DNA from: Dipteris shenzhenensis
Lineage: Eukaryota
Assembly (NCBI GenBank): GCA_047967505.1
Contig: CM106538.1
Direction: 5' to 3' (one strand)
DNA length: 64,000 nt
The notes under the pieces are model-generated. The model saw nothing but the letters and a program-made list of their open reading frames with translations, was not told the origin of the DNA and searched no databases. The position numbers were made by a program, and so were the translations under genes. Each line of letters starts with the position of its first letter. The first letter of the stretch is position 1. Positions 4,806-47,958 of this stretch are shown here, piece by piece.

Positions 4806-5609
4806 CCACCTTTGTCCCCGTAGGATATAACACACTAGGTGAGACAGTAAGTCATCACCTAGTGTGATAACCTACTGTCTACCCGAAGAGAATAAGAAGT
4901 ATTAAGAAGTGCAATTTAAAGTAATGGAAATGGAAGAGAAGTACTTGAGTGAGGTAGGTGAATAGTATGGAAGCAAAGAGGAAAACCAAGTTAGATCAGG
5001 GAGTTAAAAAGCCAAATAATGGCCTTGATGACTTAAAGGTCCTATGTGCAACCATCCAAAGTTATAGGGGAAAGCATGTGTGTGTAGTAGACATTTACAA
5101 CACCCCTTTCCATAGTGAAGAGTAGACAAATTTGGAGTAGGAAAGAGAAATGTTTAATAGATAAACTTTGCAATAAACATCACAAAAAGTGAAGTAGCAT
5201 AATTAAAGGATGAACATTTTTTTCTAAAATAGAAAATGTGAGCAGTGAAGCTTAGATAAGTCATTGGAAGCATCACTTTTATTGAAGAGGGGAGTCTGCC
5301 TACCTACCACCATCCAACAAGAAAAATGATAAGAGCCATATTTTAACTTAGTTGAGAAGACAAGTGTCATAGACACCCCTCCCTTATTATCGAGATCACA
5401 ATAATATCGAGATCACAATAAAAAATAGTTGCACACGCTTAAGACTTATAAAGCAAATTTTTGATATTGCACTTTTGAGTGTAATAAAAAGTTGGGGTGT
5501 AGATAGTAGGTAGAAAGGATTAATGTATGTAGGTGTCAGAGGTGCAGAAGGGGAGAATTTGATAGGGTAAATTTATGCAACATTTTCGAAAGAATTTGTA
5601 AAAAAGTTG

Positions 5610-16560: not shown

Positions 16561-16779
16561 GCACTTCATCTGCATCAATGGCCCATTTTAGTACCCCATC
16601 CATGCCTTGACGGTATAACACCCCATCAAAGAGGGTGTAGCGCCTACCATCTCTGCAGATCTTCTTTCTCTCATAGCTAGTACTTTTTGGAGAAAAGGAG
16701 AAAGCAGTCAGAAACCTGTAGATACCACCATACCATGGATCCCCAACTTCTATGGCCGCTACAAGGGTTACATCAAGGC

Positions 16780-17960
16780 ACTCCTCTAAATCAATCAAAG
16801 CATTCTTCAAGTTGGAACAACCCCCTTTTACAATTTTGAAAGAAAAATCATATTCTTGTAAAATTGCCAACCATTTGGCCAACCGGCCCATGGGGTTTGA
16901 TGATTGAAGAACTTGCTTTGCAAGACCAGTGCTAGTGAGTATAATGAAGGACTTTACAGCCACATAATGCTTAAATTTCTCAATGCAGAATGCCAAAGAT
17001 AAGGCATGCTTGTCAACCTCTGAATAGCATCGCTCAGTGTCGAGCAATTGTGGAGAAGCAAATCGAACGGGATACATGAACTAATCCTCCCCTTGCTGAA
17101 GAAGAATGCCTGCCAGAGTGTGCTCACCAAACCCAGGATTGATATAGAAAGTCTTTGACCAATCTGGATTGTGTAGAATGGGTTCTGAAGCCAGAGCATT
17201 CTTGATTTTTTCAAACCCATGATCACAATCCTCATCCCAAGAGAAATCAGCCCCATCTTTTAATAGCATCGTCATGGGTCGTGTCAAAGTAGCATATTGA
17301 TCAATGAAGCGATGATAGTATCCTGTTGGATTGACAAATGAATGTATCTGATGTTTGGTTGTTGGTGGGGAGAGCCTGAGGATGGCTTCTACCTTCTCGG
17401 GTCAGGCTTGATGCACTTAGATGAGACAATATGTCCTAGTAACCTCCCTTGAGTGGCTCCAATGGTGCATTTCTCAGGGTTGAGATTGCCATTCGCATCA
17501 TTGACCCTTTGGAAGGCCAACCTTCATGACGTGCCCCTTACGTGATGAGAATATACAAAAATCATCTAAAAACACCTCCAAGAAATCCCCCAAATAGCAT
17601 CTGCATAAATCTTTGAAAGGTAGTAGGAGCATTGGTGAGGCCAAATGGCATTACTTTGAATGCAAATGTCCCCCAAGGTGTGGCAAATGTGGTTTTAAGC
17701 ACATCTTCTTCGGCAATTCTGATTTGATAAAACCCAAAGTAACCATCATAGAAACCATACATCTCATGACCACTTACCTTCTCAAGAATGAGGTCTTGAA
17801 AGGGCAGAGGATGGTGATCCCTCTTGGTGGCCGCATTGAGTTTCTTATAGTCGATGCAAACCCGCCACTTGTTGTATTTCTTTAGGGTGACTACCACTGG
17901 TGAAACCCATTCAATATTGTGAACCGAAACAATAAACCCACTTTCTACAAGTTTCTATAA
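16780..17960 (-). pseudogene. Ty3 reverse transcriptase and degenerate native RNase H
   Basis: [20 protein letters not shown] and a frameshifted VFLDDF. RH region ALASEPILHNPDWSKTF...GRLAKWLAILQEYDF. Confidence 0.95.
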
Positions 17961-18419
17961 CTCTGAGCACAAAGCATCAGTCTGTACGGGCCCTAATCTC
18001 CGATACTTTTGAGCCACAGGCTTTAGGCTTCAGCTCTATCTTGTGTTCTATGGCAGTCACATGGCGAAGGTGGTGGTAGCTATTTGCGAAAAGGTCAGGG
18101 AAATCTTTGAACATTTCTAGGAACTCATCTTTCTCACTTGGAGTGAGGTCTGGGGAAAGCATAGATTCAAGTTGTTGAGGACTAGCGGCTACCTTTTCTA
18201 TAGGTGGTGGGGTTGGAGACACCCCCATCATGTAAACTTCCTCATCTGAGAACTCCTCCCCCCCATCTGATCCTTCCATTGATTTAGACACCAAGGATGA
18301 GAGAGTATCAGTGTCTTGCTCCTCTTCTTCTTCTAGTTCCGTGGCACCTAGTTGCACCGAGATCTTCTCCTTAGAAGCACCACAAGACATGTGTCCTATC
18401 TTCCAATAGCTGACTGCAT

Positions 18420-20071
18420 CACTCTTTCTCAACCATGGTCTCCCGAATATGGCTAGGTAACTCCACTACATAGAAATTGACGGTGGTGATCAACCCATTG
18501 ACAGTGATGGGCAAATCCTCAATGACTCCCAGGGTGGCGAGTCGTCAACCATCTGCTACCTTAATTCGAGTGGAAGAATGCCTTGTGCATTTCAAATTCA
18601 ATTTCTTCATGATTCGGGGCACCATGATATTACATGCAGCTCCCCTATCAACACACACACTTTTGACACGGCAATTATCTATGATGACATCTATTGTATG
18701 TGGGTGCCGATCAATTTTTTCAGAGATAGAAGATACCTCTTGTACCTTTCCCTTTTTCTTGCTCTTCCTTGTTTAGATCCCTTGCTGCAACTCACATCTC
18801 ACCTTAGGGCTTAAGAGGGGCTTAATGCTATTAGTTGAGGGAGCGTGATGCTCAAAGACCGATGAGCAAGGTCCTAAATGACCGAATAGTCCTCTTGCCC
18901 TAAGCCGATGGAAATTTCAAGGGCGACCACTTACTCCTGCGGGATCTTTTAGTCTTCAATATTGGTGGGTCTGCCATCTCAGCATCTGAGGGCTATGAGA
19001 AGGACAGTTCTTCTTGGGGCAGCCTGGTCCATGGTTTGGAGAGGGGTCCGAGGTGGTACAACTTCTTTTCCCGAGGTCAAGGATCTCTACGTCAGAATCC
19101 TCAGTGCCTGATTTACTCAGAAGATTCACCCTTGGAATATTGGGACATTCCGTGCGATAATGACCCTTCTGGTGGCACTCGTAGCATACAACATTAGCAT
19201 GGTCTCTTGGAGGGTGGTTGGCTTGATTTCTGATGCCCACCATCTCAAGCCGAAGATCATTCAGGGCCTTGGCTAGCTCATTGACTCCGGGTTCTTTTGC
19301 AGGGGGGGCCTCTTTAGCTGGAGGGGTCGAGGGAGTAGAAAGGAGGGGGGCTCGTGGCGAGGTTGGGGAAATCTTTGAGGCAGAGGGTGAGAATATACAC
19401 CTTGTTGAGGGTAAGCATCTAAGCGAGGACCATACATTTGAGGTGGAGGCGGTGGATACATCCTTGATGGGGGGTGGGAGTATGCCTCTGAGTTAGACCC
19501 CCCAGGTTGTTGTTGCAAGAATTGAGGGGGTTGCAGATGGACAATCATCTTCTTTGAAGTGGGGTCAGACTGAACTTTATCAAACTTTTGAGCAATCTCA
19601 TGTGCTAGCACCATAGTTTCTGGATTCTCCCATTTAAGCTTGAGGCGGAATTCATCACTTGCTCCTACTACAAGGTAGCCCAACACATGCTGAGTCATTC
19701 TAGCTCGAAATCTGGCATTGTCCTCCTGCATGACAATTAAACAGTCTAGGAGCACAGCCGCTCGATCCACATATCAACGCGCCATCTCACCTTCTGATTG
19801 CTTCAAGTTTGTCACCTGCAGGTACACATTCTCCGGCTCTTCTTTGCTGAAATACTCAATCATCACTGCTGTCAACCTTGGCCAGCTTTGGCAAACATCG
19901 TTGGCCTACTTCTCATACCACACGAGCCAAACCCTCTAGAAATCTGGGAAGAACCAACAGCCATCTGTCTTCAATAAGAAAGTTGAGAGAAACACAACGG
20001 CACTTGAAGGCCACAAGATACTCATTTGGATTTTCTTCAACCCATCCACAAAACGCAGGAATGTCAGCCAT
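18420..20071 (-). pseudogene. Ty3 gag and aspartic protease
   Basis: MADIPAFCGWVEENPNEYL start, CCHC knuckle CYECHQKGHYRTEC at about 19146-19190, protease VCVDRGAACNIM at about 18650. Frameshifted. Confidence 0.85.
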
Positions 20072-20529
20072 GCTTGGAAAATGGAAAAGAGAGACGAAAT
20101 GAGGCTTATCTATGGGCAAACAATGGAAAGAGGTAGCTTGAACTGAAAATCAGGTGAAGATACATCCACAAAGCACACATACGCAGGGTAGGGTGTCACT
20201 GGTGTATTGTGAAATACTACCCGGGAAGAATTTTCAGCATAGAATAGCTCATAGACAATCTTAAAAGGACCAACCCTCATGATATCATAGGCATCTTTAC
20301 AAGTGAGGGTTCAAGACGTGGCGCTGCATGAGGTTGTTCATCAAGGCAAACAAGAATGCCATGACAAATGTCAACAGTTGGAGAGCTTGCACATCACCTT
20401 CAGCTTCTTCCAGTTCTTGTAGTCGCCATGCTATTTCTTCAAGGGGTGTGCGATGTGGCATCCTTCTTTTGAGAAATGTCCTTGAGGACCTTTCTGATGA
20501 TCTTCCAAAGTCGGTAAACTCGCATCAAA

Positions 20530-21040
20530 TATGCCCAATACTTAGTTTCATGATGACCACAACCTTTGCATTCCTTACAAATGATCACCCTCCTTCATGG
20601 CTTGCAGCTTTGTTGGGGTGGTGCTTCCACTCGCGTCATGCATGATTGAAGTACAAGCTTCATGTGCCAAGAAATCAGCAACTGTATTTTGAGGTCGAGG
20701 GATATGCTAAATTTTTACCTCTTCAAATTGTTGGCACAGTTCCAATGCTTATTGATGTCGTGGAATCAAGCCTTGCTCCGCACCTTCCACCTTCCACTAA
20801 CTTGTTCACACACTAGTTGAGAATCTCCTTGCACCTCAAGTTGCTTGACGTGATGTTCTTGTGCCTTTTGTAGCCCAAAAATGAGTGCCGAGTACTCAGC
20901 TTGGTTGCAAGTACTTGCAGGTGTAGACTGGCTATAACAATACTCCTCACCACCTGGTGAAGTGAGCTTCACACCCACGCCAGCAGCCTTGGTCGAAGGT
21001 TTGTAAGCTCCATCAAATTGAAGGATCCAAGATGTCATCA
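20530..21040 (-). pseudogene. Archaeal-type RNase HI (aRH) ORF with a downstream zinc knuckle, upstream of gag
   Basis: WILQFDGA, CNQAEYSALIFGL, LEVQGDSQLVCEQVSGRWKV, then after a frameshift and two stops HIPRPQNTVADFLAHEA. Followed by CKECKGCGHHETK(Y) at 20538-20579. Confidence 0.9.
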
Positions 21041-23217: not shown

Positions 23218-26033
23218 GTGCAGATAGAAGAGACGAGTGGAAGGTCGTCCGATGATGCGCCAATGCCTGGGAGCACAAAGTGGCTTACGGAGAGGTTATA
23301 TTGTCATTGCACTCATTGCAAGCGAGAAGTACGACATCAATGTCATATTATCATGTGCCACTTGCAGATGTATGGGGAGGAGCCCGAACCAGTACCCACC
23401 GTTGGTGTTGCACGTGTTGATGGATTATCGGTAAGTCAAAGCTATTTAAGTTCACGGTTAATATTGGATACCATTATGGTACGAAACCTTGAGACAATAT
23501 CTTATATTTACATGAAATCTTAAAACAGGATGAGGAGGCTGACGAGGGTATGCATATACCTTCACACTTTGAGCATCATATTTGAAGGCAAGTGACTGGA
23601 TTCAAGCTTCGAGGGCGAATGGAGAGGAACGTCCTCCTGGTATGAAGAGGCTATTGATCTTTCACGAGCTTCCTTATTGGGTTCAGTTACAAATCAATCA
23701 TCTCTTGGATCCCATCCATATCTTCAAGAATCTGGGGGCTACTATTTGGGCACACTTGGTTGGTTCCAAAGACTCGAGAGGAGTGCGAGAAGACTTGCGT
23801 GCTATGAATAAGATGTCTCATTTGTGACCCCAAGTGCATGCTGCGGCAAAAGTTGTCCTCCCGAAAGCAACATGGATCCTCTCTATGAGGGAGGAGGCAG
23901 TGGTCAAGGCAGACATTGCCTCTTTTCAAACACCGACAGGGTACATGCATTGCTTGAAAGGAGCATTTTCAAAGGACAATAAGCTTAGTGGACTCAAGTC
24001 CCATGATTTGCACAATGTCTTACAGGTATTCTATGCTGTAGAATTAGTGTACCGATAATTGTGATGCATTAGCGTAATTATGATTATGTTATATTGTTGA
24101 CATGACTTCTTTGTTGCTTTGATAGTTCATCCTCCCAATTACAATAAAAGGGTGCTTACAAGAGATGTTAGAAATGCTATATTCAAGATCAGTGGTATTG
24201 TGAGATATGCTTACTATCAAATCGCATTGATTGCATTTTCTTCAATTTAAGATGATTAATTATGAAAATAATTTTCTTCAATTTAAGCTGATTAATCTGT
24301 AGACTAATTATGAAAATATCTTATGGACATGTGAAATAGGTGGATACCTCAAAAAGAGATCTCCAAATCGAGCATCGAGAAGGCTAGGGTGGAATCCATC
24401 GAAGCCGTATGCTTGCTTGAGAAGCACTTTTCCATGAGCATTATGACAACTCAAGTCCACTTGCTTGTGCACATTGTCGATGAGGTGGCTATTGCAGGTA
24501 CCGTTCATAGTCGATGGATGTTTTTTCTCAAGCAGTTTATGAAAACTTTGAAGGGATTTGTAAGACTAAGAGCAAGACCAGAAGCAAGCATGGTAGAGGG
24601 ATGGCTTGTGCAAGAGTCATTAGTATATATCACGGAGTTTCTTGCATCCACGGATCCTGATATGCTGCAAGCTTGTCATAACAAGAATGATGATCGCATC
24701 ATTGGCGAGGTTCCCCAAGAAAAAGGGATTGAAAGAAATATGAGCGAAGAGCAAATGGAGAAATTCAATAAGTTTTGTATCCTCAATAGCCCTGAGATGC
24801 AGAAGTGGATTGACAGATATGAAGTGGCTAAAGCAGAAAGAATAAATGCAAGAACGAGATTCAAAGTAATGTACGGGCGATCGCAACCATATCCACGGGA
24901 TCTGGCTCTTCTCCCCACTCACATGTCACTTGATTGGCTACAACTGGCTCTACGTAAAGCCGAATGCGATGGAGAGACAATAAACGAGTGTGAGCGAGAG
25001 TTATCATCTGGATGTATGATGCATGTAAGTTTCTTACCTCTTGACGTAATTAAGTAATTATTTGTGGCAATATATGCTATAAAATAGATGCATCTTCATT
25101 GTTTTAATGATGCTCTTTTACAATACAAAAAGTACAGTGCATTATGGTCATATGGACGACATTTGCGTGTGCTACGCATCGATTCAAAGAGAGTCACGTA
25201 TGATTATGGAGTCATGGCTAACTTCACACAAGATAGCTGAGCAAGTGCTTTGGATACCAATCTTCTCTCCTCACACTTGGATTATTGTGAAACCATACGC
25301 GAAATCTATGAAGCTGATTTCAGACGATTTAGTATTTTCATTCTTAATGTAAAATGGTTTAGAACTATTTACAACGGTCCCCATGCAATAGTGAGAAAAG
25401 ATAGTAGCAGATTCTTTGCAATAAACTCCACCAAACATTGGACCAATGAAAGTAATACTTTTGTTCTTCCTGAGCACTGTGAGCAGATGCATACTAATGA
25501 TTTAATTAATTGAAGCTTTCATTTTTAAAGATCCATTAATACATGTACTTAAGCATAATTTCATATATATAATTGACGACATCTGGCACCCATCTTCAAT
25601 ATAGGTGGTTTTTCATCCGGATCGTTCTGATCCAAGATGGTGGTATGTGATCCAAGTTGCACCACGAAGTAAGAAAATTTTTGAAGATAAAGATGTGGAT
25701 ATGGAGATGCCACTACCAATGCCGGATCCAATTGATCTCGATGAATCTAGCGAAGAAGATGAAGATCATAATATGAGCCAAGAGAAAGATGTGCATAATG
25801 ACATCACACGGGAGGAAGATGGAGATCACGATATTGAGGAAGAAGACAACGATCATCAAGAATCACCACACTTTATTGAAGAAGATGATCAAGTACTTTT
25901 AGGTGAACGTACGATGCTAGAGTACGATGATGATCATATAGGAGATCAACTCGATATAGAGCTAGAGATAGACTTGTTTGGCACGTTAGACTTGGCTCAA
26001 GATGAAACAGTTGATGTAAATGCTCTTCATTGA
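23218..26033 (+). pseudogene. CACTA (En/Spm) TnpD transposase, spliced, with the central core deleted
   Basis: N-terminal CHCTHC...HL, IFHELPYW...HLLDPIHIFKN, LSGLKSHDLH, VHLLVH...RWMF...RARPEASMVEGW, VKWF...FVLPEHCEQ/VVFHPD...WWYV, acidic tail. GT-AG introns. The central Tnp2 region is absent. Confidence 0.92.
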
Positions 26034-27739: not shown

Positions 27740-28552
27740 ATCATTTTGGCCGTTGAATTGGAACCCACGTGAGTGAGTAGGTCGATGTGATGGCCCGTAC
27801 TCGTTCTTAGTTAATTGTGGCTTGATAATATCGAAGTCAAAGTCGACAAAGGGGACCTGCAAGGTTCATAACCGAGCGTTCATATAAGCATGAATAATCA
27901 ACAAACATAACCCAGCATTCATGTAAGCTAAGCGTTCAATGCTTTCAAAGTCGCAACGATGGAGACACTCAAAGCTGCAATTTCTTCTACCTCGAGGTAC
28001 GTAGCCCACATTGTTTTGAATAAAAGGGAGTGACTGCCGCTACCATCAACCACAAAATGCAATTTCATAACCCCACAAAAGAGAGAGACTTCGTGGAAAC
28101 GGCCTAATTATTCTGCAACGAGAGATTCAAGCAACCAAATGAGCACCACGACGTAGGAGGAGCAGACATATTTTAGTGATTTGAATTTGATCACACCGAT
28201 TGAACAGCATCAATCCGCCTACGACGAGCCAACTTGTAATCACTCTGTTTGACTTTCTTCCATTTGCCTGGAAAACTTGCCCCCCCCCGCAAGCTTTTGA
28301 CCCGTGAGACGATACAAATAACCTCTCTGCCTCGTTGCCATAATCAGAAAACTAGCTCCCAATTCATTTCCTTGCGCCGCTTCGCTCCCGTCTTGATTCT
28401 TCTTCCTCATACAACCTTATCTTTTTTTGAGAATTGTCTCTCATTAGTACTCAGATCATAGTCTATAAACGTTTTCTCGGCGCAGAACAATTTGACGAGA
28501 TTACTCTGTCGTGAAGGGCAACCCACAGCCACAGTCTAGCCCTGTAAGCTCG

Positions 28553-28969
28553 ATGTCTACAAGCAGCAAGGCTTTGTGCCTTCTTATAATCGTCGTGATG
28601 TTGCTAGCGCTCCCAGTTGAATCTCGCAGAATGGAATCACATACTCACCACCATTCTCGAAGACGCCAGAGACAGCAGGGACAGTACATGCTCCAAAGCC
28701 TCCCCACCTCGCCTTATACTAGCCAGAGGACTAGCAGAAGATCGCACGCACAAGAGAACACTGACGAGCAAATAAGGCTATTAGACGTCAGAAATCAAAG
28801 CACACCAACGGGCCGGGGACTAAGGTTCCGTAACCGCAAAGTCTTAAGACCTGTTGCAAACCAACGGCAGTCCCTCTTCCGAGCAGCAGCTGCTCATGTG
28901 CAGTTCAACAGACTGAGCACTCCAGTTTCAGGGCCAAACCCTGGAGGCAATTCAGTACCAGCGCCGTGA
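28553..28969 (+). CDS. Secreted small-peptide precursor with an atypical CLE/TDIF-like C-terminal motif (138 aa)
   Basis: Intact single exon. Signal peptide LCLLIIVVMLLALPVES, basic variable region, C-terminal RLSTPVSGPNPGGNSVPAP conserved with the paralog. Confidence 0.85.
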   Translation: MSTSSKALCLLIIVVMLLALPVESRRMESHTHHHSRRRQRQQGQYMLQSLPTSPYTSQRTSRRSHAQENTDEQIRLLDVRNQSTPTGRGLRFRNRKVLRPVANQRQSLFRAAAAHVQFNRLSTPVSGPNPGGNSVPAP

Positions 28970-30434
28970 TTATCTTGTGCCAATCACAGAAAGCGCCCTA
29001 GTCATTGCCTTTGTCGTTGCCACGAAGTTGATACAATGCTAGAGGCAATTCCGCACCAGCGCCATCGAGACAAACCATGAGGAACGCCAGGGCAACATGA
29101 TAGATTATTATGCACCTTTGATCTAGAAGAAACGATTCTCTCAAGGACGGATAGTTCAAGAAACTCTAAGGTTAACTTCTCCAAACGTATGATAGTATGC
29201 AGAAAGAGCCTTCCGAACCCTTGCAGCCCGATAGAATGGCATTGTGATGCCCTACGTTTGTTCAAACAATGTGTATAGTACTGCGTATTTGATTGGTTTC
29301 TACAACAAACAGGGGCTACTGAAAAAGAGAAGTTGCCCAAGAAGAAAACCAAAGAATTGTATGTTTTGAATTTATCAAAATTACGGCTTTTCTATGAGAA
29401 TGGATTCTTTAATTCTAGAATTCGTGGAATTGAACTATAGATTCTAAGTAATAGCATTCATAGCTTTTTTCAATCGTTTATAAGATGAAAATGATTTGAA
29501 TATGTACCTATGAAGAACAAAACAAATTATACATGTTGAACTTAAAATTTTGTGCTTATATGGAACAAGTGTTTGAAAGTGTGACTCCCTATCATGTTTG
29601 AGTGAATAAAACATTGACTTTTTGAATTTCCTAAATTATTTATTCCATTCACAAAGGACAAGGTACAAAAATACTCTGCCATACCCACAAACTCCTCTTC
29701 CAGGATCGAGAGAGGGAGTGGAAAGAATGGGTTGGTGCCCCTCATTTCTCATTCCAGGATCCTGAGAGTGTGGTGGCCGTTGAGGGTGGCTGGGTGGAGG
29801 AGGTGGCAAGCAAGGGGGAGGGGTAGGGTTGAGGTCGGCGAGGTGATCACACCAGCGAGGCGGAGGGGAGGGAGTGAGAGGGTGATCACAACGAGGCTGA
29901 GGGGAGGGGCAAAGGAACATTAAAGGTTAATTAGATTAGCTTAATTGACATTAGGAGGTTTAGCATAGGTTAATGTTTTAATTAAATTGCCAACTGATTT
30001 TTTCAATGAATCATGCAAATTTTGTAACTTTTTTTAATCCAATCCAAATTCCTAATGCCAAGACAATTGAAATAGAAAATTACAAACCTAATGCAAAAAG
30101 TTTGATGCAAATTCGATGCTCGAGCACAAAGTTAGAGAATTTTTAGAATTAGTAGAGCCATTAGTATTATCTATTTCAATGAGAGGAGGTCAAACATTAA
30201 AATACAAAATAAGTTTTAAGGTCAAGAGGAATATAGATTTCAATTGCTAAATTTATTAAAAATCTTCTCATCGTATCTTCTAACATTAAAACAAAGAAAA
30301 ACTAATTTGGTGATGACATGTGGCAAGAAAAAAATTTCTACAAGCAAAGTTTTACAAACCAAGCTTACAAAAAAACATGCGTAGTCCATAATAATGGGGG
30401 TAACATTAAAATTCCATGTTAATTACAAGTTCTG

Positions 30435-30615
30435 TTTGTGTGTGTATGTGTGCATGAGTGCATGTTTGCACATGCATGCGTATGAGATGCCTACATCGAT
30501 GTGTATGTGCATGCGCATTTCGTGTGCATGTGCGAATGCATGCACACATTTGTGCATGTATGTGTGTGTAGATGCATCTCTGTGTGTGTGTGTGTGCATG
30601 CGCGTGGGAGAGAGA
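30435..30615. repeat. Degenerate (GT)/(GCAT) microsatellite
   Basis: Alternating purine-pyrimidine tract TGTGTATGTGTGCATG... Confidence 0.8.
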
Positions 30616-32980
30616 CACTCATGTATGACCAACTTCCATTTTCATCTAAATACCCTTACACATTTTCCACAATCCTCATCACATATTCAACTATTTGCTG
30701 AATAAAACACATGACACTTTACTATGGGTTATCTCTATAGAAGTCAATTGATCTCTCCAAGTCTATGACAAATCATTAAAGGAGATGATGATAATTCCAT
30801 CAAATGGGATTATTGTATGCATATATATGTATGTGTAGAGAATCACAAAGTAGTATTTTACACAACCCACTAATTGCGCAATCTGCAATGCTCTTGTCTC
30901 AAGGATAGAGTTTCAACATGGAAAAAGGTTCTTCCTTCTTTTTTCCCTAATTATTGGTCATTTGTAAAGTTGAACATGCACATTTTGGCATTTTCAAACA
31001 TGCAAAGGTGTGTATTGCTTATCTGTATGTGTTTGATGGTTAAGGCACTTTGAACAAACCTTTGAATAAGTATTTTCCATAAACTTGTATTTTTCCCTAA
31101 GATTTTTATGAAATTGGAGATTGCACAGCCAAAATTTATGAAATCTATGTAGTCATTTGTATGGTGCACCTTGCACATTTTCTCTATGTTCTTCTTTTAC
31201 TTTTTCTCAAGTTTGAGTGCATAACTGCCAAAAAGTTGTGCAATGATATGCGTATATCATAGATGTACATTGTTGTACGTTGCCAATGGTCACGAAACTT
31301 TGAAAAAAACTTTCAATGAGTAAGTCACTTATACTTGAAAAGATTCATAATGATGCGTGTCACGTATATGGTGGGATATGCACATCTTCTCATTTTTAAA
31401 CAAGCTACACATTGCATAAGCACCCAAAACATGTGCATCCATACACTTATACCCAATGTGTATATTGGAGATGGTCACCAAACTTTGCAAAGACCTTTTA
31501 ATGATTAACGACAAGCAACCAATCACCCAAGTTCCCCAATGCTACTCTTGGGCCTTAGAACAATAACCCCTTCCCCATGAGGGAGCTCAGTCAACCAATT
31601 ATTCCAACATTTACTATTTGAAAACTCATTCTATTAAGCCTACATGATCTCAAGTGACATCCCTAAATCATCTTTTAAGGAAATTATAGTACTATACTAG
31701 TAAAAAAGTGGTCCACCTTACTATGTACCAACCCATTTAAAGTTATCATCACTACTCCACCTAAATGGAGTAACTCTAATCCACTCTTTTTACGAAAGAT
31801 GTAACATTGATCCACATTTTGAGCTTAACCCAAGTTACTCCCAAGTCCAATGCAACATAATATGTGGATAACAAATTTTCTTTCCACAAGATAGATCCCA
31901 CCTACTAAAAACTCTTATTCATGTCTACTATCATGAAGGTGCACTAAGAGCTAACTCAATATATTGAGGACATAGCATTATCAACTCAAGTGCACCAAAT
32001 TTCAACCTTATTGGAACGGAGAGCTCTTCTTATGGTCACAAGTAAAAATAATTGATATTGTAAAAGGTGATTCAAGTGGCTAGTCCCTAATTGAGAAATT
32101 TCAAGAGCCACGTAAACGATCCCTTGAAACTGTGATTGCCTCGGAGCTCTCACTATGCAAGTCTGAAACGTTCGAACATTGAACGCTCGGTGATTTTTCT
32201 TGATTATCCACGCTTACGTCGCCTCGTGGGAACCTTGAGGTGACCTTCGTCGACTTTGAACTCACAAGCGATCCTATAAATACACCACGATTGACTAAGA
32301 AACGAGTCACGAGCTCCAACTAGAGGAAAATGAGGCGAGAGACGGCGACTCCCTCATTCTCGCAATTCAACGGCGAGAAAAATGACGATGATGAGATCCA
32401 AATTGTTTCAACGAGCGGCTTCTACAACGATACAAATTGTTTCAACGAAAGATTCAAGTAACCAAAACATGAGCATACGTAGGAGGAGCAGACATTTTTT
32501 GAGTAATTTGAATTTGACTCATCACACCGATTGAACTGCATGGCAGCAGCGAGAAATCCGCGTAAAATGACGTCGTTTGCCTTGCTGCCGTTTGCCTCCT
32601 TGCTTTGAAAACTTGTCCCTTCTTGCAAGCTTTTGACCTGCAGCCAACCCCGCAACCCAACCTGCTCACGAGAAGGTTACAAATAACCTCTTTGTCTCAT
32701 GATCGCCATAGTCAGAAACTAGCTCTGCTTCCATCCTGATCCTGCTTCTTGATTCTGTCCTCCTGCTTCTGATTTTTGTTCCTCGTACAACCTTACCTTG
32801 TCGTGGGGATTACCTCTACCTCTTCCACTCAATCTTTACTAAGTTCATAGCTGCTGCCATCTGTAATCGTCTTTCGGCACAAAGCATTTTGACGTCATAA
32901 TTCTGTGCTGAGGAGCAACCAAGGGCGGACGTAGATCAGTGTGCATTGGTGCAGGAGCTAGTGTAGCCTCGTTAAGGTTG

Positions 32981-33409
32981 ATGTCTTCAAGCAACAAGCT
33001 GCCTTTGTGCGGGCCTTTATGCCTTCTTTTAATCATAGGAATATTATTAGCGCTCCCAGTTGAGTCCCGCAGAATACAATCACCTCCTTACCACCGTTTT
33101 CGAACCCGCCAGAGACAGGAGGGATACATGCCCCAAATCCTCCCCATCTCGCCGAATAGCCAGAGGCCTAGCAGAAGATCGCACGCACGAGAAAACGCTG
33201 ACGGGCAAAGAAGGCTGCTAGACGACACAAATCAAAGCATACCAGCTGCGGACCTGGCACCAAGGTTCTCTAATCGCAAAGTCCTTAGAACTGTTGTTGA
33301 CCAACGGCAGGCTGCCTTCCAAGCTGCAGTTGCTCATTTCCAATTCGACAGACTGAACACTCCAGGTTCAGGTCCAAACCCTGGAGGCAATTCAATACCA
33401 GCGCCGTGA
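32981..33409 (+). CDS. Secreted small-peptide precursor with an atypical CLE/TDIF-like C-terminal motif (142 aa)
   Basis: Intact single exon. Signal peptide LCLLLIIGILLALPVES, C-terminal RLNTPGSGPNPGGNSIPAP. Confidence 0.85.
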   Translation: MSSSNKLPLCGPLCLLLIIGILLALPVESRRIQSPPYHRFRTRQRQEGYMPQILPISPNSQRPSRRSHARENADGQRRLLDDTNQSIPAADLAPRFSNRKVLRTVVDQRQAAFQAAVAHFQFDRLNTPGSGPNPGGNSIPAP

Positions 33410-35658
33410 TTGTGTCAAGGACTCAATCACAAAAGATATATAGTCTTTGCAACAAGGTAATCCAATCCTTCACGCCATTCTGCAAATTTCTGCTTTTGGA
33501 AGCTGAAACAAACCATGCGAGACGACAGGGCTATTCTTGATTTAGACGAATCGATCACTTAAAATAAGTTCGCAGTTGGTTCAAACAATGTACTGTGTTA
33601 AAATAAGTTCATTGTACAGTGTCCTTTTTGGGATAGCCCGTAAGTTAAAATCTTCCTTCAATTTTGCGGCAAATTACATGAAAGAAAACCTAGAAAATTT
33701 GTGAATGACTACCCCAAAAAGGCGGTTGTGAGGAGATGCTTGTATTATTATTCCAAGAGTTGGTGGAATTCTAAAAGCCTAATTATAGAATCTATCTAGG
33801 TAGAATTATACATACATTGTAAGTAATGGATGGCAAACTTCTTCATATATCTTGTACTTCTACTCTCCTACGATAATGGACTTTGTATTTCTAACTACAA
33901 GTTATAGAATTTTAAAACCTTGTCTCATAGGAAGGTCCATAGTTTATATGATGAAAATGATTTGAATAAGGTTAACAAAGACATTTCGATCTTATTATTC
34001 TGGAAGTTTTCTATGCAACAATTCTTTGAAACAATGATTCATTATGATGTCTGAGTGAATAAACAAGTAAGATTTTCCAATTTAAAAAATAATCGATTCC
34101 ATTCACATATGACAAGGTACAAAACTATTAAGAATCCATGATTGATATGTCACTATCCAATATTGTCTCAATGAGAATAGTCAAAAGATTTTGAATATGA
34201 CTTATTTTATATTTTTACATGCTTTTTGGTATTTTTCCAACGTTATGTTGGCCCTCTTCTGATTGGTTGAGAGCCTATTTTTCAAAACCCTAAAAGGCCC
34301 CAAAATGAGCTCCCTTTTTTCCTAATGAGATTTAATAATTATAATGAAAGAAAGGGAAGAGGGGGAGGGGGGGGGTGTTTCAATGAACATAATGTAAGAG
34401 AGGGGAGGGGGAAAGAAGGTAATTTTAAGGAAATAGAGAGGGGAGGGAAAAAGAAGGTAGGGAAAATATACATATATAAAGAGAGAGAGAGAGGGGGGGG
34501 GAGAGAGAGGTAATTAGAGTACGTAAGAGCCATAGAAAAACCATGAAAGATAGTGCTAAGTGAAATTTAAGGTACAGTGAAGGAAAGGGGAGGGGGGTAA
34601 TTAGAGTATGTGAAGTGAGGAAAAAATCATAAGAAGAGCGCGATAGAGACCTAAGAGTCCATGACGAGGTTTGAGAAAAGGGCGGTACCTCGAAATGCAC
34701 ACACACATAGAAATTCGAATGTGCCATCTTAAAGTGGCTTTGTGAAGTGTGCTGCTAGCACGGTGCAGTGGCAAAAGGTAGGAGAGTAAGGAGTGAAGGC
34801 TGTGAGGTTTTTATTTTATAGAAGAGAGATATAGTTGGGTTAGGAGTCGAGGAGGTGAGAGGTCTAGGGGCTAGAGGAAGCGAAAGAGGCACGCATTTGT
34901 GAGGCATATAGACTACAGCATGGACGTGAGAGAGGCATGTAAAACGAGGTGTTTAGACTGTGTAGTGAGGAGAGTGAAAGGGGAAAAGAAAGGGTGATGC
35001 ACGTGGTGATCAAAGCTTAGATAGTTTAAGTAATTTTTAAATTTTAAACAATAGCATAGACAAATACCATTAATTCGTAGAAAAAATAAGGGATTTAAGG
35101 GGAAAGTAGAAAAAATAGGAAATTTAAGGGAATTTAGAAAATAAGGGAAGCGGGGGGGAATTAGAAAACAAGGAAAAAAATTAAGGGAAATTAAAAGAAA
35201 GTTTGGGGACTTAAGGGAATTAAGGGAGACTAGGGTGAAATAAATAGTTGGGGTGGAGATAGTCGGTACAAAAGATTAATGTAATAAATAGATAGTAGGA
35301 AAAGAACAAATTAGGAAGAAAAAGAAAGAGGAAATAAATAGGAAAATTAGGATAAATTTGAAAAACATCATGAAATAAATAGAGAGAAAAATTAAAGGAA
35401 CTAATTAGAAAAAAATATGAAAAAATAGAAAATTTTATGAAATACTTAAGAGGAAAAAAGGAAAGTTAAAGAAAATTAAGGAAAAACTAAGGAAAACTTA
35501 ATAAAAAACCAGAGAGAGAGAGCGAGAGAGAGAGAGTTAAATTAGGGAGAGATTAAGAGGAGAGTAAGGGAGTTTGAGGAAAAAGAAATTAGGAAAATTA
35601 AGGGGGTTTGTCGAGGGGAGCTCTAATGAACAAGTGGTAAAACCAATGGAGGAAGGGA

Positions 35659-35660
<2 letters not shown>

Positions 35661-35744
<84 letters not shown>
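35661..35744. repeat. (GT)42 microsatellite
   Basis: Pure GT run. The paralogous run at 4774-4803 has 15 units. Confidence 0.95.
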
Positions 35745-35746
<2 letters not shown>

Positions 35747-36534
35747 CCACCTTTGCCCTAGTAGGATATAACACACTAGGTGAGACAATAGGTCATCACC
35801 TAGTGTGATGACCTACTGTATACCTGAAGAGAATAAGAAGTATTAAGAAGTGCAATTTAAAGTAGTGGAAATGGAAGAGAAGTAGTTGAGTGAGGTAGGT
35901 GAATAGTATGGAAGCAAAGAGGCAAACCAAGTTAGACTAGGGAGTCAAAAAGCCAAATAACGACCTTGATGACTTAAAGATCCTATGTGAAACCATCCAA
36001 AGTTGCAGGGGAAAGCATGTGTGTGTAGTAGAAATTTACAACACCCCTTTCCATAGTGAAGAGTAGACAAATTTGGAGTAGGAAAGAGAAATGTTTAATA
36101 GATAAACTTTGCAATAAACATCACAAAAAATGAAGTAGCATAATTAAAGGATGAACATTCTTTTCTAAAAGAGAAAATGTGAGCAGTGAAGCTTAGATAA
36201 GTCGTTGGCAGCATCACTTTTATTGAAGAGGGGAGTCTGCCTACCTACCACCATCCAACAAGAAAAATGATAAGAGCCATATTTTAACTTAGTTAGGAAG
36301 ACAAGTGTCATAGACACCCTTCCCTTATTATCGAGATCACAATAAAAAATAGTTGCACACGCTTAAGACTTATAAAGCAAATTTTTGACATTGCACTTTT
36401 GAGCGTAATGAAAAGTTGGGGTGTAGATAGTAGGTAGAAAGGATTAATGTATGTAGGTGTCAGAGATGCAGAAGGGGAGAATTTGATAGGGTAAACTTAT
36501 GCAACATTTTGGAAAGAATTTGTAAAAAAGTTGG

Positions 36535-37875
36535 AAGTTGCAAAGGTCTTAATATGTGTAAGATACATGTGCTTGCAAAGTTTCTCGTAATTTTTTTTGT
36601 GCACCATGCGAAAGTGCTCCAAAAAATATGCATTGTTGTACTTATACCATCATGTGTATGTGTGTATAGTACTTTGCAAAGGTCTTAATATGTGTAAGAT
36701 ACATGTGCTTGCAAAGTTTTGGGTGATTCAAATATCATTTGGGAGGTAAGGCATGCATAATTTCTAGTCTTTTTAATCATGCACAGTGCTTAAGTGCTCC
36801 AAAAAATTTGTGTTGCTACATTTCTACCATCATATGCTTGTGTGTGATGGGTACAATAATTTGTACTAACCTTAATATGAGTAATTTCCATGAGCTCATA
36901 AATTTTATCATTTTTGTGGTAAGATATATGTATTTCTGTGTTTTTTTATCATGCACCATGCTTAAGTCCTCTAAAAAATATGCAATATTGTTGTACTTCT
37001 ACCATCATGTGTATATATCCGATGGATACTATTCTTTGCAAAGGTCTTAATATGAGTAAGATTCATGTTCTTACAAAGTTTAGTATGATTAAGATATCGT
37101 TTGTAAGGTAATACATGCATCCTTTCTAGTTTTTTAATCGTGCACCATGCGTAAGTGCTCCAAAAATTTGGTGTTGTTGTAGTTCTACCATCACGTGTAT
37201 GTGTCTAATGGAAAAGATAGTTTGCACTGACCTTAATATGAGTAATATCCATGATCTCATATTTTTTTTGGTTATTCAGATATCATCTATATGATAAGAT
37301 ATGCACATTTCCATGTTTTTTAATCATGCACCATGCATAAGTGCTTCAAAAAATATGAATTGTTGTACTTCTACCATCATGTGTATGTGTCCAATGGGTA
37401 TCATAATTTGTAGAGGTCTCAATATGAGTACTATCCATGTACTTCCAAAGTCTATTGTGATTTGGATATCATTTTTTAGGTAAGACATGCATAGTTTCTA
37501 GTTTTTTTATCATTCACCATGTGTAAGTACTCCAAAGAATATGCATTGTCGTGCATCTACCATCATGTGTATATGTCTAATGGGAACAATTATTTGTAGA
37601 GTTTTTAATATGTGTAATATCCATGTGCTCACAAAGTTTGATGTGATTCAGATATTATTTGTGAGGTAAGAGATGCATAGTTTCTAGTTTTTAAATCATG
37701 TACGATGCACAAGTGCTCAAAAAAATGTGTGTCATTATACTTCTGCCATCATGTGTATGTATCCAATGGGTACAATCCTCGTACGATACTATATACTGGC
37801 CTTAATATAAATAAGATCCATGAGATTGAAATTTTGTGTGTGATTTGGATATCATTTGTATCATAAAATATGCAT
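36535..37875. repeat. About 185-bp tandem repeat, duplicate of 5610-6950
   Basis: Same units in the same order. Confidence 0.9.
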
Positions 37876-40079
37876 ATTGGGTCATTGGTTGCTTGGGTGT
37901 AGCCATTTTTTGTGAGGTTTAGGGAATTTTTTAGATATAGGTATCTTGCATGACCCATAACTTATGCTCAACGGAAGTTGACAAACTTTGTCTCCAAGTT
38001 GTAGTACACATTCCAAACTTGAACATGAAACCAAAAAATTATGGAATAACAATTTAAAATGAGACCGTTAAAGCATTACCAATGCTCTGTTGCATGTGAA
38101 TCATGCATCGTGAAGACCACAGGATATAGCAATTTATTTAAAAACATCAAAATTTTGTTATGTATATACATGCAACCAAGTAATCATTCAAAAGTACACT
38201 ACATGAGCTTCTTGTTCGTCGACCCAAGGACACACCTAAATGAGAACATTAGGCATGGATTAATGGGCCTCCAATGTTGTGCTAAAGTGATGCACACCCA
38301 TTTTGAGGGCACGCTCCATAACATTTTTTTTAATTTGTTGAAAACCATAACAAATTGAAATTTTGGAATCTAAACTAGTGAAACTACTGCATGGGGGTCT
38401 TAAAACATTGATAGTTATTGGTATTGGTATCTAGATTCACCCTAAAATGGAAGAAGTTGAAAATGTGTAATTTGTGCATGTGCAAAGATCTTTTAATAAA
38501 TCCAACACTATTTATAATTTTAAATTATTTATTTTTCCATGCACTTGCTTGCTATATGGCTCATAAGCATGCCAAAGGTCATTGCATTTCATAATACATA
38601 GCATCAAACCCGATAGCATGCCCTTTGGGAGCCCTTTGGACTATTTGTGTTTTGAAGCATTTGAGGCCACATTGCTTTTGTTTGGGATATTATCCAATTC
38701 TATTGACGTGTATTGTCGGAGGGGTGAAACCGATGGCTAAAAATTTTGCTACTCCCACAAATTTTAAATTTTCATACCTCCCCTGGGCAGATTAAGTACT
38801 TGCAACCTGCCCCTACCCGCAACCCGCACGAGCCTCAATGTGACCTTGTGCCATCTTTGGTTTGGCATTGTCATGTTCTGAGTAAGTTGTCTTCTATTTT
38901 TTGCTTGCCTCACAAGCTAGCTTCTCTCTGTTTTGGTTTAGCATTGTCATCTTTCATTGATCATTTCCATGGCACCGTGCAGCTCACCATGGCTTGCAAG
39001 AGAAGAAGACAGAGGCACTAATATAGGAAAGATGAAAAGCTTAGTCAAGGCACAAGGACAGATTGTGGGTCGAGGAAAGAAACGGCACGGTATCAGAACA
39101 ACAACAGAAGACAAGTTTTGCAACGCTTGCAAAGGGAGAAACAACGAGAAGAAATAAGATTCCTTACAGCGCAGCAACAGGAAGCGGTTATAGATGCATG
39201 CATTCAATCATTGACATTAGAGCAAAGAACACAAGTTGTGAAGCAATAGCCATTCAGGTGAATACCAATCTCGATTCTTCACAAGCTTTTGCTTGCACCC
39301 TAAAGTTTGTAGAGTGACAACCCTACCAATACGTCAGGAGATGCACATAGAGCAGAAGCAATGCCCAATCATCCCGATCCGAGTAGTCAACAAAATGCAA
39401 GAAAAGGAGAGACAACCTAAGTGCAAAAGTCATTACAATAGTGATGATGTTTTGGCATTTATCCAAATAACAAGGACATCTATAGAAAGTAGACGGGATG
39501 CAAGATGCTTGACAAGCACATCATACACGTGCTTCATATAATGTAGGTCAGTGATTGCCTAAAACATCCTGGTGGTTGTTTGTGATTGAGCTTTGGGATA
39601 GTTTACTTGTTTCATTTCTTGATACAACACAGGTCAGTGGTTGCCTAGACTAGCCTGGTGGCTGTTTGTGATTGAGCTTTGGGATAGTTTACTAGGCTGG
39701 CTTGGACATAATGTGATTGTCCTAAACTAGCCCGATGGTTGGAATATCATGCAACCGTGGTGGTTGGTTCAACTCAAACACTAGAACCAGGATGGCTTGG
39801 ACTTAATGTGATTGTCCTAAACTAGCCAGATGGTTGGAACATCATGCAACGATGGTTGGTTCAGCTCAAACACTAGCTATGTGATTGTCTTGAACCAGTG
39901 TGGTTGAACAAAAAGTAACAGCAATATATTTCATAATAGAACAGTAATATATTGTTATTTTACTAAACCAGCTCGGTGGTTGGTGAGAGCGGAAGTGAGA
40001 GAGGGAGAGCGAGAGGAGTGCACATGATATAACTACCTGTACACTAAGTGTATTGACAATGAACATGAAGACATACATG

Positions 40080-43000
40080 TGAACCCCTTAGGTTAAGGTT
40101 AGGGTTTGCCCCTATGCCCTATGTGGATAGTGCAATTTACACTATCTTGTTGGCACTTGGATAGCAAGGCTAGTTGCTTGTTGTAAGAATGGCTTTTGTT
40201 CTTGTATGGCACCAAGATGGGGCTGCTATGCTACCTCAAACAGTGCCTTTCCTCCTTTATTGTGCTGTGTTTTCTTCCTAGAGCTTTTGTGGCTTCATGA
40301 CTAAGAAGGAACAAAACCCTGTTTGGTGCATATGATAGCATCCAAAAACTGGAAAGAAATCACTGTACTATGTGCGTATGTGAGTGCACTGACTACATAG
40401 TGGAAGCATGTACAATGAGTACAACTTATGAGGTCATGCACAAGATGTGCATTTTCCCCTCTTAAGTTGTGGGTCATCCTTCGCCTTTGGGAACGAAACC
40501 CAAAAAATAGGGCAAAGGGAAGAGAAAGGAAATATGCAGAAAGTAAAGTCCTTTTGGATCAAATACTAGTCAATCAAAAGATGACTGCGTGAAGAACGAT
40601 GTGTATGGCTACGTGTTGAACATGTCAAAGATGAGCATGTCATAAGTCATCATGGACTGTGCAGCTACCCTGAAGAGGCATCCGGATGTGAATCTAGTCA
40701 ATGTAGGCATGAAGACATGATCTGGTAGGTTGTGACATACGAGGGTGTCACCAACCCAAAAGAACTGACAGCAATGTGCGAGGTATGCTGGAGTAATGTA
40801 ATCTCTATCGAATGATGCGGGGTCAAAGAAGACCGCATAGTCGATGTGGACAGAGTGATCTAGGGGCTGAAAATCTAGGGCCAAAGGTGCATGTATGTAC
40901 ATTGCTCTACTGAAGAAGAGGCTCATACACATGACAAGGTATAGCAACCTATCAAACCTGTGTGCTCAACTTTCATGAGTTGAAGGTCGTCTTTTGTTTA
41001 CATGGATAAACATCCATTGGCATAGGATGTAGCATCTATCGTAGGCTCATAAAGAAGGAGCTGACAGTGTAAAGGCCTAGAAGCCTGAAATATCACTAAG
41101 AAAGCATAAGATATCCCTGAAGCATTTGAAGTGCCTAATGCTGATGAAGGGACCAATTTGAAGTCATGGATCCAACCACTGAGCTACATGAAGTAAGGCT
41201 ATATACTACAACCATAAGTGCATGATGAAACAATGAGTCTCCCCAGGTTGCGCTATAACTGGATCCAAGGGTGGTGCAATGCGGTATGTCTGAGCCAATG
41301 CTGGAATGTTCTAAAGGCCGATGTGCTAATCTGAAATGCTGGAAGGAAATGTGTCCAAGGTATGCTCTATGTTAAAGGTGAAAGCATCAGTGATGGATGC
41401 TGGAATGGTATCACCTGAAGAGCTGGATGCATTGTGGCATGTATCTCTGCATGTGGTTGGAGATGTGTGTGCCTCGTACTGAAGACTTACCAGCTGAATA
41501 ACTACATGATTATTAGTGAACTCCTGCTGAGTATCTACATCTGTGGCAAGAGATGGAGTCGAATCCATGCATGAGAGTGATGGCTGTGCATCACAAGAAT
41601 TAGTCTAAGCTGATGTCGATGGGACTACCTCGTATTGAGGACTGACTGTCGAATATGCCTTGTGATGAGGGCTTACTGCCGAATGTGCCTCATACTGAGG
41701 GCTTACCGAGGAATGTGCATTATCAGAAACTCCATGCAGATAAGTCCATGCTGGAGGCGGTCTGGTGCTCTGCACAAGAGGCTTACCCGTGTACCGACGA
41801 GAGTGTCTACCCATGAGAACACTACTGTGTGAGAGCTACCATTAGGGGGCTTACGCTAGACTATCAAAACCAAGCCATGTGAGAACTGCAATATGCCAAG
41901 GATCAAGCCTGTAATTGAATGATGACAACTGTGTGTCAAGATAACCAAGAGGCTGTACAAGGCTGATGTGTATGTGTGTGAACCAATGCCAAAAATAGTC
42001 AACAAATGTGACTTTACATGGGTGGCATTTGAGTGCAAGCTGTGTGCAACAATCCTGAATCCGAGAAGGATCTCTTCCAAGGGTCACACTGAGTGCTAAA
42101 CTACTGAATGCCAAGAGAATTGAACTGGTGTCAATGTGTGAATGTGTATACCAGTGATAGATCCAATGGGACTAACGTCGATGGGAACTAATCGGGTAAT
42201 GTGGTAATGGTGGCTGACTTGGCTTGGTGGAGTTGGATCTCCTTTGTGGTGATGATATTCTATAGCTAGACTACACGTCGAATCACAAAATCCAACAAAT
42301 GAATCTTATCTGGATTCATTTTAAGTGCTGGGTGCGTTGCAAAGGATTAGGAGGTGGTCTGATGATGAGGTTTCAATGACTCTAACATATGGAAATGTTA
42401 GATAGAATATTTGAGATACTCAACGTGTAGAGCATGATCTAGCGATCCTTTTTTCTTTTTACAACTCTGTGAAATTCCTTCTAGATCAAAAGATATGGCC
42501 CCTAGAAGGATAGGCCAAACTTTGATCCCAAGAAGGCCCAAAAATGATGATATGGCCTATTGTGAGGTGGCAAGCTGAGATCACATGCTAAATGCAAAGT
42601 ATGCCTGAGGCACTATGTGCTGAGGTGGCACATGGTGACATGGCACTGCTGATGATTGGGTAGGCTGATTGCGTTGTTGATTGACTGGGCACTGCCGCGT
42701 GTCAAGTGACTTGGCAGGCTGACTGGGTAGATGAGGTGGCATTGCCATGTGGACATGCTGAAGTGGCAATATGACTGGATGGTCAGTGATGATGTGGCAT
42801 GCCACTGTGGTACTGCTGACATGGCATTGGTGATGTGGACACTGCACTAATTGTGACGACATGGTAGACAATTGTGTCTGTTGACGTGGCCCGATGCGAT
42901 TGCCATTTGGCCGTTTGTCCACCAAGCTATGTGGCTACCCCTTTGCTGCTACATGTGAGTGTTAGGATCACTGGAATCTGGAAAGATTTTGTTGGGATCC

Positions 43001-47644: not shown

Positions 47645-47958
47645 ATTTTCATGTTTTTTTAATCATGCACCATGCATAAGTGCTCCAAAAATATTTGTTG
47701 TTGTACTTTTACCATCATGTGTATGTTTTCGATGGGTACCACAATTTGCAAAGGTCTCAATATCATTAAGGACCATATGCTCACAAAGTTTGTTGTGATT
47801 TAGATATCATTTGTGAGGTACGACATGAATATTTTCTATTATTTTATCATGCACCATGTGTAAGTGCTCCCAAAAATATGCATTGTTGTACATCTACTAT
47901 CATGTATATATGTCCAATGGGTACCATACTTTGCAAAGGTCTTAATATGATTAAGATC
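47645..47958. repeat. Two further units of the 185-bp repeat family
   Basis: TTTTAATCATGCACCATGCATAAGTGCTCCAAAAA...ACCATCATGTGTATG, abutting the copia truncation. Confidence 0.85.

Follow-up and report, generated by a model that had tools for sequence, protein, structure and literature searches.

Two paralogous genes for a putative GGN-type secreted peptide in the fern Dipteris shenzhenensis and their possible descent from IDA-type precursors

We analyzed a 64,000-nucleotide stretch of the Dipteris shenzhenensis genome (GenBank assembly GCA_047967505.1, contig CM106538.1; hereafter the window) and describe two paralogous genes in it, A and B, each predicted to encode a secreted peptide with the C-terminal core SGPNPGGN. 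We lean, if only slightly, toward the view that they are genes for a secreted "GGN-type" peptide and arose, as stand-alone genes with one motif each, from a fern family of IDA-type polyproteins in which 1 to 11 copies of (D)TPVSGPNPGGN would precede a C-terminal IDA motif. The GGN peptides appear to be a variant class of their own: A and B are assigned to neither CLE nor IDA, and a split from fern IDA-type precursors is their most likely origin. The variant stands between IDA, H-type CLE, and CEP/PIP and is common to ferns, spruce, and a lycophyte; all functional steps given below are inferred.

Genes A and B encode putative secreted peptide precursors

An earlier reading of this DNA, made from its letters alone (the sequence-only reading), had reported two intact, intronless open reading frames (ORFs) with a signal peptide ending in LALPVES-RR, a basic pro-region, and a motif-bearing C terminus, and had seen in them the architecture of post-translationally modified peptide precursors. 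Hydropathy and composition confirm this picture, with the following features (signal peptides from hydropathy, with putative cleavage sites).

28553 to 28969, plus strand: ORF A, single exon, 138 aa, putative secreted peptide precursor
28553 to 28624, plus strand: predicted signal peptide of A, aa 1 to 24, ending VES
28916 to 28951, plus strand: predicted mature 12-mer of A, STPVSGPNPGGN
32981 to 33409, plus strand: ORF B, single exon, 142 aa, putative secreted peptide precursor
32981 to 33067, plus strand: predicted signal peptide of B, aa 1 to 29
33356 to 33391, plus strand: predicted mature 12-mer of B, NTPGSGPNPGGN

The two short proteins are 66% identical and probably disordered. Each has one strong hydrophobic stretch, at the N terminus (Kyte-Doolittle 11-mer value of 3.7 in A and 3.5 in B, peaking over residues 8 to 23), which terminates in LALPVES-RR, and past residue 40 hydropathy reaches 0.87 at most. 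A pro-region of ~95 aa follows. Both proteins are basic (21 and 19 K+R versus 6 and 9 D+E in A and B, respectively), their one or two cysteines are confined to the signal region, and the C terminus after the 12-mer reads S-(V/I)-P-A-P. A signal peptide, a length below 200 aa, scarcity of cysteine, and a conserved, proline-rich motif near the C terminus, which together characterize small secreted peptide precursors, are all found in A and B, and by this architecture they are probably precursors of post-translationally modified peptides. SGPNPGGN has a chance expectation of 4e-6 in the window and occurs there twice, only in frames A and B.

The motif recurs in tandem-repeat precursors of other ferns

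A profile of A and B, run with HMMER over 1.84 billion representative sequences, matched a single protein, the hypothetical protein P0005 of Adiantum nelumboides (E, 3.8e-9), in ten stretches, all of them on the motif. When a profile of the motif was used instead, 5 of 434 candidates matched at E ≤ 10, and all five contain tandem repeats. These relatives (P0005 to P0009) hold 11 and 11 GGN copies (A. nelumboides MCO5612106.1 and MCO5596496.1), 6 copies (Pteridium, EukProt EP00250_P000797), and 6 and 2 copies (two others). The consensus over their 36 repeats is (M)L-DTPVSGPNPGGN-S, with variable positions 1 to 4 (D in 19, T in 18, P in 19, and V in 26) and tight positions 7 to 11 (P in 27, N in 35, P in 31, G in 32, and G in 34), followed at the position after the motif by Ser in 29; the pattern used to extract the repeats required G6 and limited the residues allowed at positions 5, 8, and 12. 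A profile made from the 36 repeats alone singled out A (E, 2e-7) and B (E, 5e-6) among 3264 six-frame segments, with the next best at an E of 2.1, which argues that the motif is real and conserved outside the Dipteris genome. The flanks of the motif in the window recur as well, as RLNTP in P0007 and RLDTPV in P0005 and P0006.

Two proposals of the sequence-only reading fall with these relatives. The family is not lineage-specific, as the motif is present in Polypodiales and Salviniales ferns, and its SGPNPGGN core or a one-residue variant is found in spruce and Selaginella. Nor is the product well described as a 14-mer starting from Arg, a residue that occupies this position in 3 of the 36 repeats (Met in 15) and is no conserved start. 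A Pfam scan of A and B returned no family at E ≤ 10, from a scanned set that missed PF27884 even in P0008 and P0009; a whole-protein word search with B recovered none of 43 candidates; and a sequence search of the PDB gave one match at chance level (E, 0.61). The motif profile search is blind to a lone SGPNPGGN, which in a local test scored an E of 2.6e4 (Selaginella SmCLE15 repeat) or 1.4e6 (nematode peptide 16D10). Absence of the motif from flowering plants was considered as a finding and dropped, since the profile search also missed the spruce, Salvinia, and Selaginella proteins discussed below.

The fern relatives are IDA-type precursors

Downstream of the GGN repeats, four of the five relatives carry an IDA-like motif, the exception being P0007. 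It is intact in P0008 (FSELPRAPVPPSGPSPSHN) and P0009 and degenerate in P0005 and P0006, and the residue that follows the IDA motifs in these precursors is again Ser. Precomputed annotation places PF27884 on P0008 and P0009; the name IDL5 for this family comes from atlas leads of P0009 scoring below 0.9 (two of the three matches listed, 14 to 23% of members). These findings speak against the derivation from CLE put forward in the sequence-only reading, although the 12-mer itself is closer to CLE46 than to IDA by the residue counts given below. In P0005 and P0006, where the GGN repeats have grown to 11, the degenerate IDA motif ends in HS and one copy is shortened, as if the passenger GGN motif had replaced the original IDA ligand.

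The two-motif layout extends to Salvinia cucullata. Its protein Sacu_v1.1_s0067.g016251, listed with the IDA peptides of Fig. 8 in PMC8462819, shares, in the supplement of that paper, the pro-region word PQIQMVT with the relatives; MLDAPSSGSNNGGNS occurs once inside it, and an IDA motif closes it. The Azolla IDA protein of the same supplement (Azfi_s0991.g094677) has no internal GGN-like motif. Because Salvinia belongs to the Salviniales, and Pteridium and Adiantum belong to the Polypodiales, we infer that the layout of GGN plus IDA is older than the split between these orders. Four IDA-like Picea proteins in the accessible supplement (PAB00030716, PAB00026896, PAB00056962, and PAB00019422) show a conserved IPSNQNAGGGN-like element upstream of the IDA motif that faintly resembles the internal motif of the ferns.

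Outside the motif, A and B themselves resemble these precursors only weakly. By tBLASTn, P0006 and P0009 are colinear with A from the signal region to the GGN motif (25 to 26% identity; E of 1e-5 within the window, motif included), and when signal and pro-region were scored against the profile of the relatives, 21 of 1000 shuffles did as well as A and 257 of 1000 did as well as B. The C termini of A and B, set against two fern IDA segments, were equaled by 29, 71, 18, and 338 of 2000 shuffles, scores that are driven by the shared SGP and are not taken as proof. By eye, the flanks lean toward IDA in F-x-x-L, Pro3, the Ser after the motif, and NRKVL, and T-P-V is found as in Azolla IDA and the P0009 IDA motif. 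Two of these elements in A are located as follows.

28904 to 28915, plus strand: FNRL, an F-x-x-L anchor directly 5' of the 12-mer of A, at the place of the EPIP FxxL (weak alignment support)
28832 to 28846, plus strand: NRKVL in the pro-region of A, like the NRKML/RKLM that precedes the IDA motif of SmIDA1 and MpIDA1 (by eye)

The 12-mer compared with CLE, CEP, and PIP peptides

Across the 12-mer, A and B share eight residues with the spruce motif, the first SmCLE15 repeat, and 16D10; seven with CLE46; six with TDIF and MpCLE1; five with CLV3 and Azolla IDA; and four with AtIDA; the IDA pattern is broken at positions 4, 8, and 11. SGPNPxxN, which the sequence-only reading matched to the CLE core, has the GN end of CLE46 and MpCLE1, and R/H1 and Pro4 are lacking in A and B, as that reading remarked. 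Judged by the CLE site weights of PMC7552357, G6, P7, N/D8, P9, and N/H12 are all present in both. Position 1 is Ser in A and Asn in B rather than Arg or His, neither of which occurs there in any of the 36 repeats, and Val/Ser3 and Pro4 are replaced by Pro3 and Val/Gly4 (Pro4 in 3 and Val3 in 5 of 36 repeats). His1 and Val3, through which H-type CLE peptides such as TDIF contact PXY, are absent. The C-terminal GxGH that marks the CEP and PIP/PIPL families (PMC8462819) is likewise absent, as A and B finish in P-G-G-N.

A different classification, which we consider fairly unlikely, would make GGN an atypical H-type CLE (CLE46/MpCLE1-like, SGPNPxGN) without His1, acting via PXY/TDR-clade receptors, with its place in IDA precursors secondary (a fusion or a convergent repeat). 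The identities of 7/12 to AtCLE46 and 6/12 to TDIF and MpCLE1, with G6, P7, N8, P9, and N12 kept, are what such a peptide would show; TDIF tolerates alanine at positions 2, 5, 10, and 11, by which G10-G11 need not block binding to PXY (PMC4856767); and H-type CLE motifs occur in the same precursor as the GGN-ended repeats of SmCLE15. The spruce GGN motifs have even been filed as CLE Group 4 (PMC7552357), an assignment that was, however, backed by one of three classifiers. Against this classification, His1 and Val3 contact PXY (PMC4856767) and are residues that the motif lacks or rarely has, a CLE motif outside the repeats was found by eye in none of the five fern relatives, and ferns retain ordinary TDIF genes.

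Spruce and Selaginella extend the motif beyond ferns. Among 2156 CLE candidates from 69 species (PMC7552357), a pre-filtered and fern-free list, PNPGGN appears in four rows, two from Selaginella and two from Picea abies. The latter, MA_10356943g0010 and MA_24844g0010, have three copies and one copy, respectively, of (H/D)VAPSGPNPGGN, followed by GxGH-ended motifs. Selaginella SmCLE15 (BAH56546) begins with two GGN-ended repeats, continues with IDA-like PSPPAGPSPVHN repeats, and ends in CLE motifs. In the PMC7552357 supplement, Sphagnum fallax Sphfalx0094s0048.1 has a C-terminal VPAPPGGNPGHN, with a look between CLE (NPLHN) and GGN ends; it is a possible moss relative of the GGN motif. The accessible Table S1 of Ceratopteris CLE peptides contains no GGN motif, and the accessible CEP supplements contain no GPNPGG.

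Constraint on the A/B pair

The sequence-only reading had called the C terminus far more conserved than the middle of the protein. This is right for the core SGPNPGGNS, in which 9 of 9 residues are identical between A and B without a single replacement, and overstated for the pair as a whole, where identity is 18/22 over the last 22 aa, 53/88 in the pro-region, and 19/26 in the signal region (C terminus versus pro-region, Fisher p=0.08). Over the whole coding sequence, the ratio of nonsynonymous to synonymous substitution rates (dN/dS) is 0.77; it is lowest in the signal region (0.27), followed by the C terminus (0.73) and the pro-region (1.05). Indels between A and B are multiples of three in 4 of 4 coding cases versus 8 of 29 flanking ones, and in a neutral simulation with the same number of substitutions both frames stayed open in 4.4% of runs. 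Frame preservation is a stronger sign of constraint than the substitution contrasts in the pair, whose support for selection is modest.

The flanks of A record an old duplication and a small relic.

28116 to 28552, plus strand: upstream region homologous to 32443 to 32980 (shared promoter/5' untranslated region, old A/B duplication, ~21% diverged)
29041 to 29064, plus strand: out-of-frame relic, 98 nt downstream of ORF A, of its final 24 nt

The relic matches at 20 of 24 nt, a level reached by none of 2000 shuffles; it has no counterpart after B and is possibly a decayed second repeat unit. At 28461 to 28470, ~90 nt upstream of the ATG of A, lies a TATA-like TCTATAAA; the aligned site of B is TCTGTAAT, which hints at different promoters for A and B.

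These data also bear on whether the locus works at all. A and B could be remnants of a truncated IDA polyprotein gene that are slowly decaying, or the repeats could be spacers without a signaling role, and in neither case would the locus make an active peptide. A dN/dS of 0.77 that does not differ from 1 (p=0.30), a dead sister copy nearby in which 4 of 4 changes are non-silent, the decayed repeat after the stop of A, and transposon-rich surroundings with a broken kinase gene in the window would all suit decay. We nevertheless hold it improbable, given that both frames with their starts and stops survive ~20 to 25% neutral divergence with all four indels in frame, that the nine-residue core is free of replacements, that dN/dS is 0.27 in the signal region, and that the motif is conserved across fern orders.

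Points that weigh against descent from IDA-type precursors

Several results tell against the origin of A and B as functional offshoots of the fern IDA family. The 12-mer is nearer to CLE46 (7/12) than to IDA (4 to 5/12), and position 4 of B is Gly versus Val in 26 of the 36 repeats. The IDA EPIP motif (FxxLP...PP-S[GA]P-S-x-x-H-N) was sought in A and B with an IDA profile of P0008 and P0009, and no match was obtained. Scored against the profile of the relatives, the pro-region of A was equaled by 27 of 1000 shuffles and that of B by 969 of 1000; with homology this weak outside the motif, it is possible that the motif was recruited independently. Within the pair, the overall proportions of nonsynonymous and synonymous differences cannot be told apart (p=0.30), and the dN/dS and identity contrasts are not significant.

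A proposed route from precursor to signal

If A and B are GGN-type offshoots of IDA-type precursors, their products can be pictured by analogy with IDA and TDIF. The precursor would enter the secretory pathway, Pro7 of S-G-P would be hydroxylated, and subtilase-type cuts after the x-L before position 1 and at the N|S bond would yield a peptide of ~12 residues (an 11- to 13-mer) with a C-terminal Asn; subtilases (SBT) process both IDA and CLE40 (PMC11756074). With S-G-P and the N|S junction retained in the GGN repeats, each unit looks built for release in this form. The peptide would then lie along the concave face of a subfamily XI leucine-rich repeat receptor kinase, its Asn carboxylate held by the RxR pair of the receptor, and a SERK co-receptor would be recruited. 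A free C-terminal Asn is bound by an RxR pair in both IDA-HAESA, where the central hydroxyproline is needed and C-terminally extended IDA is rejected (PMC4848090), and TDIF-PXY (PMC4856767). Because positions 1 to 4 vary among the repeats, recognition would probably rest with positions 5 to 12, and the HSL clade seems a somewhat likelier receptor than PXY/TDR because of the gene context and a Gly-rich end that recalls the GxGH ligands of that clade. Separate genes would allow a GGN signal independent of IDA expression; as to the output, cell separation and root or stress signaling are guesses.

The same groove could be occupied to the opposite effect. GGN might be a built-in antagonist or damper of IDA signaling, which fills the groove via Hyp7 and Asn12 and, with P-G-G in place of K-R-H, recruits SERK poorly. 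Co-encoding with IDA at up to 11:1 would suit such a role; the four C-terminal residues of Arabidopsis IDA contact SERK1, and the K66A/R67A variant, whose binding is 10-fold weaker, is possibly a weak dominant negative (PMC4848090); and 16D10, which shares the core, failed to rescue ida mutants (PMC5972575). We give this idea little credence, however: Adiantum has a degenerate IDA motif alongside numerous, well-preserved GGN repeats, and in spruce GGN repeats accompany GxGH motifs, not IDA, so both patterns fit GGN as a signal in its own right.

The dead copy and the surrounding locus

Elsewhere in the window lies a remnant of a third copy, pseudogene C.

4307 to 4474, plus strand: pseudogene C, copied from codons 1 to 56 of B and interrupted by TAG at codon 49 (4451 to 4453)
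3376 to 8907, plus strand: segmental duplicate of 32067 to 41130 with two internal gaps (blastn, three blocks of 92%, 94%, and 95%)

The sequence-only reading was correct that this copy is dead, as the TAG demonstrates, with the qualification that only the first 56 codons are present and 4307 to 4474 contains no GGN motif. It differs from B at 4 of 168 nt, none of them silent. The counterpart of 33149 to 35365 in the source segment (~2.2 kb, the rest of the gene) was deleted from the copy at a CATC microhomology, which accounts for one of the two gaps and left C as the 5' part of a gene B that had recently been duplicated with its segment; truncation by a transposon insertion was ruled out in favor of this deletion inside the duplicate. 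Birth and death at the locus, as first suggested from the letters alone, is supported by the A/B duplicates together with C.

A tandem repeat family of ~180 bp, with members 70 to 82% alike, occurs at 5647 to 6952, 36571 to 37878, and 47644 to 47964, two of these arrays lying in the segmental duplicate. Between C and A are the remains of a long terminal repeat retrotransposon with integrase and RNase H (15655 to 21038, minus strand) and a DUF4218 transposon fragment (24434 to 25057, plus strand). At 53285 to 54873 (minus strand) lies a receptor-like kinase gene, with a thaumatin ectodomain, that is broken: against Pteridium P0002 it shows a single in-frame stop as well as frame changes. Its kinase part is 77 to 82% identical to a protein of Pteridium aquilinum, and the named match that follows, Gb_20500, reaches 50%. 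P0002 itself combines PF00314 with a kinase whose next closest kin are legume-lectin receptor kinases.

Novelty and significance

Neither a GGN class, nor fern IDA precursors with two motifs, nor a plant counterpart of the 16D10 sequence was found described in the literature searched, with 8 of the 20 supplement files of PMC7552357 and most subscription papers lying outside it. The class is thus apparently undescribed, with single members already catalogued in supplements. According to reviews, peptide signals that belong to non-flowering lineages alone are almost unknown, and CLE and IDA are probably of common ancestry (PMC8462819, PMC7552357). Against this background, a single motif with a CLE46-like C-terminal half and IDA-like flanks is found in IDA precursors of two fern orders, shares its precursor with GxGH motifs in spruce and with CLE motifs in Selaginella, and stands free in the genes described here. 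It supplies a candidate ligand for the orphan subfamily XI receptors of ferns and suggests a route by which peptide families may be born, through tandem duplication within a precursor, divergence, and then fission. It also touches the puzzle of 16D10, which is needed for root-knot parasitism, looks like a CLE, and has no known receptor: plant sequences now match its last eight residues exactly.

A bolder synthesis, for which we would claim only a small chance, is that SGPNPGGN peptides are an unrecognized, ancient hormone class of vascular plants (lycophytes, ferns, and conifers) with their own subfamily XI receptor, that they were born as passengers in IDA, CLE, CEP, and PIP polyproteins and record how these families arose, and that 16D10 mimics the class on a receptor still present in flowering plants.

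Comparison with known systems

The Meloidogyne effector 16D10 matches A and B at 8 of 12 positions and is identical at positions 5 to 12. It differs in being a nematode gene, with other residues at its first four positions, including Pro4, and its peptide comes straight after the signal peptide without a variable domain (PMC8618561), whereas A and B have a pro-region of ~95 aa in between. In the full-text literature, GPNPGGN turned up in root-knot nematode papers only, the string being that of 16D10 where checked. The effector is reported to be required for parasitism and to bind SCARECROW-like transcription factors. Because its end is one substitution away from that of CLE46, convergence on H-type CLE is plausible, at least as likely as mimicry of GGN, and we treat the match as a lead, not as an established link.

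The spruce precursors are like A and B in the exact SGPNPGGN core, have Asp at position 1 in most copies, and combine tandem repeats with a second peptide type downstream; they differ in having V-A-P at positions 2 to 4, Lys after Asn12, and CEP/PIP-like GxGH partner motifs instead of IDA. In SmCLE15, the first repeat, LSPPTGPNPGGN, is followed by Ser and is 8/12 identical, but it has Thr at position 5 and sits in a ten-motif precursor named for its last, CLE-type motifs. The H-type CLE/TDIF group (TDIF, AtCLE46, MpCLE1, and SmCLE13) shares SGPNPxxN with A and B, and CLE46 and MpCLE1 also share the GN end; A and B depart from it in lacking His1, Val3, and Pro4, in having Gly10, and in having multi-repeat, IDA-type relatives.

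Compared with fern IDA/IDL precursors, A and B stand alone in having a single, C-terminal GGN motif, no IDA motif (neither PP before SGP nor S-x-x-H-N), and weak pro-region homology. Yet they share with them a signal peptide, a basic or His-rich start, an FxxL or xxML anchor, the S-G-P core, and an Asn followed by Ser, and the GGN motif itself is found in named fern IDA/IDL precursors, those of Salvinia, Pteridium, and Adiantum, though not that of Azolla.

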